DNA of 43,259 nucleotides from a bacterium (GTDB taxonomy: Bacteria > Patescibacteriota > Gracilibacteria > Absconditabacterales > Absconditicoccaceae), in the NCBI GenBank assembly GCA_043729885.1, contig JAYTKZ010000040.1, positions 1 through 43,259 on the forward strand, given 5' to 3'. The notes under the pieces are model-generated. The model ran no database searches and was not told the origin of the DNA. It saw only the letters and a program-made list of their open reading frames with translations. This document shows, in pieces, positions 27,120 to 33,651 of this stretch (positions are counted from its first letter, which is position 1; each line of letters starts with the position of its first letter). Position numbers and translations under genes: made by a program.

Positions 27120-27428
27120 ATGATTTCAATCAAAGAGTTCGACTTACTCTCAAATCAAGACAAACAAGCATATTTGCTTAGAATGTTTTCACAATTATGA
27201 AACGTTAAACCAGAGGCAATTGATGTAATAGATTTGCTCGAATCATGATATAAATTTTCGACACAGACATTAGATTCCATATTTACCTCTATGTGAGATG
27301 CTATCCAAGAGGGCAAAAATACCAATACCGATAAAATACAAAAACAACTTCATGTAATTCATGAACAATTAGAAAAAGAAGCATCTGAATCATCTGATGA
27401 AGCAGATGATATGCTTGATACTATTTAA
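27120..27428 (+). CDS. Small acidic protein (102 aa), first gene of the giant-ORF operon
   Basis: Open under code 25 with 3 TGA. Ends 18 nt before the giant ORF start. Asp/Glu-rich C-terminus. Confidence 0.6.
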
Positions 27429-27446
27429 ATATAACTATGTAACCTG

Positions 27447-30400
27447 ATGGCTAATGCTGTACCACAAAGTTTTGAAGAACTAAATAAATCTACATTAGGT
27501 GATAAAAAGCTTAGTAGAGAGGAGATTTCTTATATGCAAGCAAAAGATGCTCTTTGGTATAAGGATATATCAAATTGATTACTTCTTGATGTGCAAGAAG
27601 TAAATAAACTTAGTTTAAGCAAAAATCCTACAGTTAAGAAAATTCTGGATTACTTAATTTTTCATCCTGATGTGTTGCTTAGTAAATTTAATAGTTTTGT
27701 GACACCCCAATTAAAAACTGCATTTAAAAAGATATTAAGCGATTCTGATGATTTTCAAAAACAATCTCTAGTCTTGAATGTTCTTTTGTTTTTATCATCT
27801 GCTAGTACAACGACTGACGAAAAGTCTGGTCTTATTCGCCCAGACTTGATTAACTTATTTTCAACTACTACTGTAAAATCGCTTCATAGATATCAAAAGA
27901 AGTATGAAAATACTTCTTGATGGTCTAAAGCAGATTGTATAGTATGACCAAAAACTATTCAGCAACTTATAGCAGACTGTGGTATGACGTTGCATGATGG
28001 AGTAACATGAACATCTGCAGTAACAATAGATAGTCAATTTAGTAAATCAAAATCAACATTGAAAGAATGATACTGATGGGCAAAAGATTCACAGATAGCA
28101 ATAGATGCTATTATGGCTGACCCAGCACTTGATGCAGTACAAAAAACACAAGAGATGATTAAAGTATGTAAAAAAACTACTACTGATCAAAAAGATGAAA
28201 AAAATGGAGAATCAAAAGATAAAAGATATGCAGCAGTTGTGCAAATGATATTAAAAGTTAAAACAATGTTAGCAGCTGCTGATGATGAAGGGAAGGTTCA
28301 AATTCTACAGTGCTTTGATAAAACATTTCAAAAAGAAATTTCTCAATATCGAAATAGTAAAAACTCTAGAGAAGATTTAGGTGTGTCTAAAAGTGATGAT
28401 TTCTGGAAAGAACTAAAAGAAGTGAAAGTAGAAAGTGAATCATGGAAAAATAAAATTAATCTAGCTCTATCTACAGCTAATCTTTGGAAATCATATATTC
28501 ATACCTGTGCCCCAAATGCTGCAGAAGAGTTTTGATCGCAAATTGACAAAGCAATTCAATGATTACAAAAACTTACACGCTATGATTGAGCTGACCATAC
28601 AAAAGAAATTACAGTACTTCTGAGTAAAGTATTTATAACATCTGAAGAATATAGAGTAAAACACAATTCTATATTCAAAGATAAAACGAATCACACAGTA
28701 CAACAATATTTGCTTAATACCATTACTTCACTTTTTGGAAAAAAGACTTGAGATGTTATAAAAGATGAAAATTGAAAAACAATAACTGTAGACTGGAGTA
28801 AGGGGATAGTTAATATGCTCAACATTATTACAACATCAATTAGAACGATTGATAAGAATTTTGATTGATGAATATTTGATCATTATCAAACATGAGAATG
28901 ATTAACACAAATGCTTGAATCAAATGATATAATTAAACCAAAAGATATTAGAATGACAGCTTGAAAAAATTTCGATCAATATAATAGCGATATGGATGCG
29001 ATGAAAGCACTGTTTACAACTATTCCAAATACTAAACTAAACACATTAATTAGCTCACTTGATAAAACTACTTCATCTACTCAAACGGTATACATTGAAC
29101 ATTGAATGAAAACAACTGAGACATCGTATAGTTTTGATAAAGTCGCATTAGACAAAGCATTAGTTGAAGTTGGGATTAACTGACTTTCTGCTGATTGTAA
29201 AAAAGATATGTGGGAGAAATATAAAAAGATGAAAGAAGAAGTAATTCCACAAGCAAAGAAAGAAGCTGAACAAAGTATTGATGGGATTATTAGTTCTTTT
29301 CAATCATCGGTTGATTTTCATACAAGACAAAACAATGCTGCTGTGATACCAATTATACAATCTCAAATTGATGCCCGAAAACTTTTCCGTGTATGAAAAT
29401 GAGAAATGCCTATAGACAATACAAATCCATTACTACAAGAAAATTTAAAAATGCTTTGATTGCCTGCATGATCAATAACTATGCAAACATTTACTGATAA
29501 CTTTATAAACACAAAACTACAACTTTCATCTGCTGCAGTACTTGAGCATTATATGACAGTATGAATAATGGATAAACACTCATGACTAATTGATGCTATA
29601 GAGTCTAAACAAAATAAAAATAGTTCTGAAAAAGTATTATCACTGTATGCTAATATTCATGGAGTATGATCTGGTTGGTCTGATGAAACATACAATACAG
29701 CTATGACTGTTGCTAAAGAAGTTACAATTATGGTTGTAGCTACAATTGCAACTATGTGAATAGGTGCAGCATTTAATGCGGCATGAAGAGCTGTCGTTGC
29801 TGGTGGTGAACTTATATTAGCGTCAGAGTGAGTTGATGTTGTATTAGTATCTAGTAGAGCAGCAGCACAAGTATTATCTAAAACACCATGACTTGCTACT
29901 AGGTTTGGGACGTGGGCAAGTAAATGGACTTCTATGGCTAAATTTTGTGCAAAAACATCACAGTGAATAAATGCCTTAAAGGGTGCAAATATAATTGGGA
30001 AATGAACAATATGATTAACAAAGATGGCTATTGAATGATCAGCTTTCCACTTTTCATCTACTGCAATGTCAAATGTACTTCATGGCCAAGAACGAAATCT
30101 ATGATTACAAGATTGGAAATGATATGCAAAAACATCATTGTTTTTGGGTGCATTCAAATATATCCATGGATGAGTTAATAAAATGATTGGATTAAATACA
30201 GAATCATGAATTACTAAAGCATTTACAACTCCTGCATCAATAGCAGGTAAGACGATAAATATATCAAAAGCATTTGTTAAATCAGTAGTTGGTGTATGAA
30301 CTGAAGCAGTCTCAATGACAGCAGTAGATATTCCATTATCATTAGTATTTGACGGGAAGATGCCTGATATGTCTGCTAAAGATTTAGCTCAAACATTATG

Positions 30401-33296: not shown

Positions 33297-33297
33297 T

Positions 33298-33651
33298 ATG
33301 ACATCACAAATCCTTACTATCCATTATCCAACCCTAGAAAAAACACTTATTGAGCAGGATATCGAAAATCCAGATAGAACAAAAAGCTATCTTGATATCA
33401 TGAAAACTAATTTTGCAAAAAATACATTTGAGGTTTTGCAGTGAGAAATTGCTTTTTTGGAAGTAGATCATGAAAAACATAATATCACTAAACTAGGTGA
33501 TGAATTGAAAGGTGAGTATTACGGGATTCCTGATCCTCATTTCCCAGATTCATATGATGAAGTATTCTACGAAAACTTTGTACAAGCAATGGAACAAGCT
33601 AAAGAAATGGGAGTATACGATGAAATCTTCAAAGAAATTCAACCTAAATAA
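33298..33651 (+). CDS. Small acidic protein (117 aa), candidate immunity/partner protein
   Basis: ATG 1 nt after the giant ORF TAA. Extends track ORF 33457..33651 through one TGA. Very Asp/Glu-rich. Confidence 0.65.

Follow-up and report, generated by a model that had tools for sequence, protein, structure and literature searches.

A giant gene with an exchangeable, ADP-ribosyltransferase-like C-terminal cassette in an Absconditabacterales bacterium: a candidate polymorphic-toxin-like locus read in genetic code 25

What could be the role of a giant protein that ends in an enzyme-like domain, carries peptidoglycan-binding-like modules, and is encoded between two small acidic proteins amid the core genes of a bacterium reading TGA as glycine? 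This question is raised by a locus of an Absconditabacterales bacterium (assembly GCA_043729885.1, contig JAYTKZ010000040.1), found at positions 27120 to 33651 of the window, by which we mean the whole stretch of 43,259 nucleotides that was analysed. The giant gene (27447..33296, + strand) consists of 1,949 codons and a TAA (33294-33296), and its neighbours encode proteins of 102 and 117 amino acids (aa), called up102 and dn117 below; L-numbers denote related loci or contigs, and P-numbers homologous proteins from databases. The three genes are best read as one conserved, fast-evolving locus of a bacterium from the Candidate Phyla Radiation (CPR), of the Gracilibacteria/Absconditabacteria type, in which TGA means glycine (genetic code 25). 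On balance, we lean towards the view that this locus specifies a polymorphic-toxin-like giant envelope effector with interchangeable ADP-ribosyltransferase (ART) cassettes and two constant small partners.

The original prediction, made from the nucleotide letters alone, held that the frame opening at 27447 is devoid of TAA and TAG, contains about 80 TGA codons, and is visible under the standard code only as four pieces of at most 140 aa plus antisense artefacts. This was borne out. The frame has 1,949 sense codons, exactly 80 of which are TGA, and no TAA or TAG, compared with 101 and 163 such triplets in the other two + frames of the same stretch. Since a TAA lies in frame at 27432-27434, the ATG at 27447 is the earliest possible start. 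Under table 11, the frame is split into four pieces of 109, 140, 62 and 69 aa, accompanied by three antisense open reading frames (ORFs). TGA makes up 61% of the glycine codons in the giant ORF and 42-74% of those in the genes for GatA, MurF, a rhomboid protein and a glycosyltransferase, and the final glycine of the GatA amidase signature GGSSGG is encoded by TGA; the use of code 25 in the window is supported independently by these housekeeping genes. Three further metagenome contigs carry the 1,949-codon ORF with a single amino acid change (F72S) and unchanged neighbours, so the gene is real and not an artefact, and frame breaks through assembly error, which the original prediction had named as one danger to its proposal, are excluded. 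Orthologous loci were found in four further, more diverged lineages (L012, L015, L016 and L019), and the ratio of nonsynonymous to synonymous divergence (dN/dS) of the giant gene was 0.2-0.24 in the regions tested.

Public protein collections store this gene as a code 4 translation only, with 80 Trp residues where Gly belongs. Many homologs are affected in the same way (P0001-P0015 and others are code 4 entries), and six of them, when re-translated from DNA, proved to contain 47-150 wrong Trp residues per stored protein. Family and structure searches with such entries are systematically handicapped, because Trp stands at each TGA. A word-indexed search with the whole protein returned nothing except the same gene in code 4 translation, and scans of GTDB representative genomes and JGI metagenomes with the C-terminal module, up102 and a dn117 alignment yielded no confirmed locus.

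The exchangeable C-terminal cassette and its fold

The observations on which our reading is mainly built concern the C-terminus of the giant protein. Its last ~295 residues (1655-1949) form a module that starts ~35 residues past a junction motif, YIPKELR (residues 1615-1621; 32289..32309, +), which precedes the exchangeable cassette and whose consensus, Y-[IL]-P-[KRQ]-E-[LIV]-R, occurs at the equivalent place in L012 and L015. In L015, a syntenic locus, the module is 90.5% identical to that of the window, with values of 88% for MurF and 44% for the 120 residues before the module. Nucleotide identity between the two loci rises from ~52% to 86-99% at residues 1650-1660, a jump that begins ~30 residues past the junction motif, and it drops after the stop codon. 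Synonymous divergence (dS) from L015 is 0.26 in the module, as against 1.17 in MurF, 1.66 in dn117 and ~2.6 upstream of the module. The giant proteins of L016 and L019 have no module and stop 20-25 residues past the junction motif. In L019, where all three genes are present in order and MurF is 84% identical, a stand-alone gene (L019 6660-8141) lies between the gene for the 118-aa partner and MurF. The junction motif begins at residue 36 of its 493-aa product, and residues 313-482 match the exotoxin-type family PF03496, ADPrib_exo_Tox (E=1.3e-14; 54 bits, the cut-off being 23); no gene follows on the same strand, hence there is no obvious immunity partner.

Interruptions of the giant frame were also found. 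In L012-L014, which represent a sister lineage, a TAA (L012 3563-3565) stands where the window has CAA (Gln1676), between the strands bearing the conserved His and Arg of the module. It is common to three assemblies from related runs, the module beyond it is intact (68.5% identity to that of the window, dN/dS 0.24), and it is likely a recent inactivating mutation. In L019, a 14-nt tandem duplication at 3831-3858 (GATGACAATTGAAA twice) splits the giant frame into ORFs of 944 and 804 aa; when one copy of the repeat is removed, a single 1,726-aa ORF colinear with window residues 7-1631 is obtained. This duplication could be due to pseudogenisation, phase variation or assembly error.

Swapping of the C-terminus among relatives, to which the original prediction had pointed as worth looking for, was therefore found in the form of exchange, loss and replacement. 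A module swapped, lost or replaced behind a conserved junction is a hallmark of polymorphic toxins. Systems of this kind (Rhs, CdiA, MafB, LXG-type) possess C-terminal toxin cassettes and orphan modules. Our locus is similar to them in that a large multidomain protein bears a toxin-type enzyme domain at its extreme C-terminus behind a short conserved junction, in that relatives have recombined or lost the cassette or carry another type of toxin in its place, and in that the unfused downstream cassette of L019 keeps the junction motif, like an orphan module. These comparisons of sequences show the C-terminal module to be an exchangeable cassette, which appears to have been moved between lineages by recombination.

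What this cassette might do is suggested by its predicted structure. When an AlphaFold2 (AF2) model of the module (predicted template-modelling score, pTM, 0.80) was compared with the PDB by Foldseek, the top match was Tpt1 (7yw4; E=1.3e-4, probability 1.0, target TM-score 0.69), five DarT entries had probabilities of 0.85-0.98, and the remaining matches were noise. Thus, DarT, which is the toxin of DarTG and ADP-ribosylates DNA, and Tpt1/KptA, an RNA 2'-phosphotransferase, are its best and only significant structural matches. The predicted ART fold is confined to the first half of the module (residues 1655-1825; 32409..32921, +), where it was assigned from the model, the Foldseek matches and the conservation of a putative triad. 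As in DarT and Tpt1, an N-terminal H-x-T strand is followed by a helix and then by a strand with a conserved Arg, and the triad is of the H-Y-E type. Its candidate residues are H1668 (conserved in 9/9 sequences), Y1701 (10/10) and E1792 (10/11, Gln once), and R1689 is conserved in 9/10. The spacing, 33 and 91 residues, is close to that in the H-Y-E triads of diphtheria toxin (H21/Y54/E148) and PARP1 (H862/Y896/E988).

The second half of the module (residues 1826-1949; 32922..33293, +) is a helical subdomain according to alignments and the secondary structure of the model, and contains the conserved motifs GIKIIE..T, L.Y.G.S, YP, LSRG, GQYQNY and EQQ.YF.Y. Foldseek gave no structural match specific to it, and this extra subdomain of ~125 residues distinguishes the module from both DarT and Tpt1. 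Unlike DarT, a ~200-aa cytoplasmic toxin, the module forms the terminal part of an envelope protein of 1,949 aa, and it lacks a profile match to the DarT models of PADLOC and to the Pfam and NCBIfam models. PDB sequence and profile searches with the N-terminal 750 aa and with the C-terminal module gave nothing meaningful, and Pfam, NCBIfam, PHROGs and PADLOC searches with all three proteins of the locus produced only an endolysin-type peptidoglycan (PG) match. The view that no characterised family is recognisable in these proteins therefore held at the level of sequence and failed at the level of fold. We regard the window cassette as a candidate for a previously unclassified H-Y-E ADP-ribosyltransferase-like module whose nearest structural relatives would be Tpt1 and DarT, both of which modify nucleic acids.

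All proteins in which the module was found (311 to 2,594 aa) are Trp-rich and hence recoded; it lies at the C-terminus in most of them and internally in P0013. The Trp residues of these homologs revert to Gly on re-translation from DNA. As all module-bearing homologs are Trp-rich code 4 translations, the family is restricted to recoded organisms. A profile search with the module alignment revealed no additional homologs, seven module homologs had no Pfam match to any ART family, and the module was not found in IMG/VR. In L008 and L009 only, the gene for module-bearing P0006 is followed by a 91-aa ORF and then by a Macro protein matching DarG (E=2.1e-9), an arrangement in which L008 resembles DarTG. 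In contrast to DarTG, no macrodomain gene lies beside the module in the window, and no Macro gene that could encode a DarG-like antidote was detected among the genes scanned around the window locus. A separate observation concerns L005 3737-15321, where a small acidic ORF paired with a very large protein occurs twice in tandem (106 + 2,044 aa, then 92 + 1,445 aa). The 2,044-aa protein, P0010, combines an FHA domain (E=5.2e-8) with the ART module, in which the candidate catalytic Glu is replaced by Gln.

The small acidic partners and the putative envelope region of the giant protein

The giant ORF had been described as tightly bracketed by two acidic proteins, and the coordinates agree with this. 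The up102 gene (27120..27428, +), a code 25 ORF with 3 TGA codons, ends 18 nt ahead of the giant ATG; the protein has 20 Asp and Glu versus 9 Lys and Arg residues, and an acidic tail, ...SSDEADDMLDTI. The dn117 gene (33298..33651, +), also a code 25 ORF, is coupled to the giant gene via the junction TAATATG and starts 1 nt past the giant TAA; its product has 24 Asp and Glu versus 11 Lys and Arg residues. An ortholog of up102 occupies the same position in L019 (54% identity, E=2e-38), and dn117 orthologs directly follow the giant gene in L012 (84-86%), L016 (75%), L015 (63%) and L019 (118 aa, 53%). With the 102-aa ortholog, the 118-aa ortholog and MurF standing together in L019, the three genes do form a unit, as had been proposed. 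Neither small protein could be assigned to a family in Pfam, NCBIfam, PHROGs or PADLOC, and dn117 is under purifying selection (dN/dS 0.09-0.15). The dn117 gene occurs on 16 contigs, the longest of which measures 99.5 kb. Distant giant homologs are preceded by small acidic ORFs with a similar acidic-Leu tail. Homology among these upstream ORFs was considered and rejected (hhalign probability <5%), leaving positional analogy only.

The position of dn117 had led to the proposal that it is the immunity protein of an effector ending in the C-terminal module, and the original prediction had made this proposal depend on co-variation between the two. No co-variation was found. In L015 the module is 90.5% identical and dn117 63%, while in L012 the respective values are 68.5% and 84%. 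The recombination tract that covers the module ends at the stop codon and leaves dn117 out (dS 0.26 versus 1.66). Moreover, dn117 is kept with giants that have no module (L016, L019) and with the nonsense-cut module of L012-L014, and at six distant module-bearing loci no dn117 homolog was found, the next gene being convergent in two of them (L006, L010). Thus, dn117 is independent of the module in degree of identity, in history of recombination and in occurrence, and is not its matched immunity protein. Of the proposed effector/immunity layout, the modular giant protein with an exchangeable, toxin-type C-terminus stands, and the role of dn117 as cognate immunity protein does not. On comparison of the loci, up102 and dn117 are instead conserved, constant partners of the giant protein, and they may serve as chaperones, export adaptors or assembly factors.

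The remaining part of the giant protein points to the cell envelope. When the giants of the window and of L019 are compared (~25% identical overall), three conserved islands stand out: the first 45 residues, an N-terminal PG-binding-like motif, and a second PG region together with the adjoining module A. Residues 1-45 (LGDKKLSREEISY.Q.KD.LW.KDI; 27447..27581, +) are strongly conserved and hydrophilic, in agreement with the predicted absence of an N-terminal signal peptide, and are a candidate export or partner-binding signal. No domain or signal of a known secretion system (Sec, two-partner secretion, PAAR/VgrG, LXG) gave a Pfam or NCBIfam match in the giant protein. The suggested likeness to LXG-type loci was not borne out, as no LXG, WXG100 or other trafficking domain was present; LXG and WXG100 had no match in the giant or the small proteins, and no type VII secretion system gene was seen among ten Pfam-scanned neighbours.

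Two PG-binding-like motifs had been predicted. The first, similar to PG_binding_1 (residues 143-175, ...LHRYQK...GWSKADCIVGPKTIQQL; 27873..27971, +), was recognised by inspection and conservation, being near-invariant between the window and L019 within a region of 25-40% identity; it had no match among the hidden Markov models of Pfam and NCBIfam, and its likeness to D-G-x-x-G-x-x-T is by inspection only. The second (residues 1255-1301; 31209..31349, +) matches the C-terminal, wall-binding end of the endolysin profile phrog_17214 (positions 275-321 of 322, E=1.6e-5). It had no Pfam match and a weak one to NCBIfam PG_bind_siph (E=0.1, under its cut-off), it is 54-58% identical to that of L019, and an AF2 model of the region was helical, without a specific PDB match. 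The motif recurs in P0003, P0004, P0010, P0017, P0020, P0022 and P0030. Between the two PG regions lies the central hydrophobic block that had been predicted, Gly/Ala-rich and partly amphipathic in the Kyte-Doolittle profile (residues ~750-1000; 29694..30446, +), with one clear transmembrane helix (residues ~756-778, nt 29712-29780) and several amphipathic segments. The block is kept in P0004 (26% over 378 alignment columns), P0017, L012 and L019; P0004, a protein of 2,594 aa, has both it and the PG-binding region in common with the window protein. An association of the giant protein with the envelope would be supported by this block, by the endolysin-type match, and by the conservation of both PG motifs as islands.

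An exhaustive HMMER search with residues 750-1949 yielded 33 relatives and defined two separately conserved modules, module A and the C-terminal module (module B). Module A (residues ~1328-1523; 31428..32015, +) is an alpha/beta domain whose AF2 model (local confidence, pLDDT, 76.5) had no significant PDB match; its identity with a GNAT acetyltransferase, the top structural match, is not claimed, the probability being only 0.54. It occurs in P0003, P0007, P0015, P0016, P0019 and P0021-P0034, that is in recoded bacteria and in many standard-code multidomain proteins. One carrier is a phage protein of 1,282 aa in standard code (L018 9323-13171, on IMGVR_UViG_3300046000_006960), 81% identical to the module A region of the query P0025. 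The gene of this phage protein comes immediately behind that of a virion structural protein of 1,507 aa (phrog_28748, E=2.8e-255). The module A proteins related to that of L018 had no Pfam or PHROG match, the PHROGs search being empty for seven standard-code ones. Repeats of GGWLD-x-Y occur in P0023, P0024, P0025 and P0032 among them, the first two of which also have PG-binding motifs and a NNCADNVCDAFG motif resembling those of Cys peptidases.

Possible mode of action and rival explanations

In the mechanism that we propose, the giant protein would consist, in order, of the 45-residue N-terminus, a lineage-specific helical region with the first PG-like motif, a 250-residue membrane-insertion block, a basic linker, the second PG-binding module, module A, which is shared with phage virion proteins, the junction YIPKELR and the exchangeable cassette. 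It would be anchored in, or exported through, the cell's own envelope and would bind peptidoglycan at the site of contact, and the ART cassette would be delivered into a neighbouring (host or prey) cell. There, with NAD+, the cassette would ADP-ribosylate DNA or RNA, possibly protein. Cassettes would be shuffled among lineages through recombination at the junction, in the style of polymorphic toxins. The PG motifs on either side of the membrane block, together with the missing signal peptide, suggest export of the whole giant protein; the export route, the delivery into another cell, and the enzymatic activity and target of the module are what we infer.

Several points weigh against this interpretation. 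The triad residues were assigned from spacing and conservation, not by superposition, and the alignment behind the AF2 model comprised only 12 sequences, in code 4 translation with Trp for Gly. The structural match is limited to the first half of the module, with a query TM-score of ~0.3, and the module had no profile match at E<=1 in Pfam, NCBIfam or PADLOC, nor was there an ART among the PDB sequence and profile matches. In principle, nucleotide-level constraint could account for the low dS instead of recombination, and the variants without a module come from single contigs (1.7 kb in L016; in L019, a giant with the frameshift caused by the 14-nt duplication). Among close relatives, the module is best conserved and the middle of the protein most variable, whereas textbook polymorphic toxins, in which the C-terminus is the divergent part, show the reverse. 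The proteins and neighbours scanned revealed neither a secretion system nor a signal peptide or known trafficking domain, and the window yielded no gene for immunity or for an antidote. The lack of an antidote is odd, because a DarT-like toxin could act on the nucleic acids of its producer. The locus thus differs from known polymorphic toxins in that neither a trafficking domain nor a secretion system is recognisable, that an immunity gene specific to the cassette is missing, the downstream small gene being constant whatever the cassette state, and that two conserved small acidic genes flank the giant one.

A classical toxin/immunity system, in which the module is the toxin, dn117 its cognate neutralising immunity protein and up102 a secretion helper, as in LXG and polymorphic pairs, seems to us quite improbable. 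The toxin-type ART fold of the module would suit it, as would the acidic character of dn117, shared by many immunity proteins, and the translational coupling of dn117 1 nt past the giant stop, a junction retained in L012 and L015; in L016 and L019, dn117 could even be an orphan immunity gene guarding against neighbours. Such a pairing is contradicted by the missing co-variation of module and dn117 in L015 and L012, by a recombination tract that homogenises the module and excludes dn117, by the retention of dn117 with giants whose module is absent or disrupted, by the six distant module-bearing loci without a dn117 homolog, and by the failure to find an LXG or WXG100 domain. A serious, if unlikely, alternative is that the giant is a surface or host-attachment protein whose ART-fold module acts in cis or locally, as a Tpt1-like enzyme, a regulator or a non-catalytic binder, and is not delivered; the mosaicism would then reflect antigenic or host-range variation. 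The giant membrane proteins of Absconditabacteria-type predators are thought, according to one account of them, to mediate attachment to and interaction with the host (PMC8080830). Those of Vampirococcus lugosii, like the window protein, belong to a code 25 lineage, exceed 1,390 aa, are predicted to be localised in membranes and have been proposed to interact with the host; compared by description only, they differ in being characterised by WD40, TPR and PKD domains, 'ADP-ribosyl' not appearing in the parts of that account consulted (PMC8080830), while the window protein has a defined enzymatic cassette, PG modules and two small partners. The middle of the giant is hypervariable (25-44% identity, with MurF at 84-88%) and the module conserved, the top structural match, Tpt1, is not a toxin, no immunity gene lies nearby, and the neighbourhood is of the housekeeping type, all of which would fit a surface protein. 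Yet L019 carries, as the alternative cassette of this locus, a bona fide ART of the exotoxin type (PF03496), and in L008 a DarG-like Macro antidote gene lies downstream of a module-bearing homolog. Several lineages have lost the module through a nonsense mutation or truncation, which suits a dispensable weapon better than a core enzyme, and NAD+-dependent chemistry is implausible outside the cytoplasm.

It is very improbable, in our opinion, that the locus is a phage or conjugative remnant or cargo. In this view, a virion protein of the polyvalent or tape-measure-like kind would have been inserted, or domesticated, between GatA and MurF along with its chaperones. Large multidomain ('polyvalent') proteins associated with phage virions form a known class, here exemplified by L018; they have in common with the window protein module A, and the occurrence of PG motifs and enzymatic domains in proteins of >1,000 aa. 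The location of the L018 gene beside virion structural genes, the match of the module B model to many large uncharacterised phage proteins in BFVD, and the pilin genes of the type IV secretion system (T4SS) 2.3 kb away are compatible with such an origin, and the acidic upstream ORF, the hydrophobic block and the PG motifs recall tape-measure or ejection proteins. However, the window gene lies in a syntenic chromosomal context of housekeeping genes, with core genes as flanks and no virion gene or other phage or conjugation gene in the 43 kb, and synteny on the MurF side extends to L015 and L019 (84-88% identity). Its TGA usage is that of the ordinary genes of the host. A tblastn search of deposited phage genomes with P0023 and the C-terminal 726 aa of the giant protein gave no match, the ART module was not found on the viral contigs of IMG/VR, and PHROGs returned the PG-binding match only.

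Chromosomal surroundings and significance

The window represents the core chromosome, with tuf, ribosomal-protein operons, SecY, GatA, MurF and a 23S rRNA gene; the gene starts listed for the first 19 kb were read as ribosomal proteins, EF-Tu and SecY by inspection, without a family scan. As had been predicted, CPR-type T4SS pilin genes lie downstream of the locus: two membrane proteins matching T4SS_pilin (PF18895) are encoded at 35919-36890 (-; E=1.2e-10) and 36924-37502 (-; E=3.2e-5). A functional link with the giant gene did not find support. No T4SS ATPase or channel gene was found within the window, and no pilin families were listed in the gene tables of the distant loci. In L012, the pair of giant and 117-aa genes is followed by a convergent UMPH-1 gene and MurF is not there; with UMPH-1 in its place, this side of the neighbourhood is not conserved in that lineage.

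Several features of the surroundings deserve mention in their own right. The gene for an ABC exporter (20435-22291, -) uses TGA at 0 of 32 glycine codons, as against 42-74% in neighbouring genes, and was possibly acquired recently from a standard-code organism; the EF-Tu gene (478-1656) is also devoid of TGA, perhaps on account of high expression. GatA and the up102 gene are divergent, and the 650 nt between them contain an ORF of 114 codons with a hydrophobic N-terminus (26555-26896, -), for which the sister contig L001 has a shorter call (71 aa). Between MurF and the first pilin gene, ~800 nt (35120-35918) contain no ORF. The G+C content of 35500-35900 is 0.42-0.47 in a genome of 33% GC, and a 12-bp GC-rich hairpin followed by a T-rich tail is found at 35803-35829 (+). 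No Rfam family reached threshold in this stretch, and its folding z-scores of -1 to -3.6 were modest; a terminator or leader region, or else a structured RNA of no established class, may lie here.

Polymorphic ART toxins are known as a concept; what is new here is an ART family without a sequence model, its junction motif, the architecture of the giant protein, the constant partners and the restriction to code 25. As far as the consulted parts of PMC8080830 go, the giant membrane proteins of predators of the Absconditabacteria type have been described in general terms. No polymorphic toxin system of the Candidate Phyla Radiation was described among the papers found by a term search. Lineages using code 25 are especially opaque, because standard gene calling fragments their genes and databases store Trp for Gly. 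The junction motif can be used for mining further cassettes, and the two conserved small partners may mark an unrecognised export or assembly pathway. The locus also calls for caution, as a tightly coupled small acidic gene located downstream need not be an immunity gene.

How the episymbionts and predators among CPR/Patescibacteria damage or control their bacterial hosts is largely unknown, and the locus described here provides a concrete, testable candidate. A bolder proposal, which we put forward tentatively and consider doubtful, is that code 25 CPR episymbionts or predators possess in it a new weapon that depends on contact, whose export would be specified by the N-terminus and the two partners, and which would inject interchangeable ART cassettes that ADP-ribosylate the nucleic acids of the host. 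The PG modules and the membrane-insertion block would then span the interface between the envelopes of symbiont and host. If this were true, Gracilibacteria/Absconditabacteria would have, in the giant protein, their first candidate for a molecular effector through which hosts are killed or manipulated.

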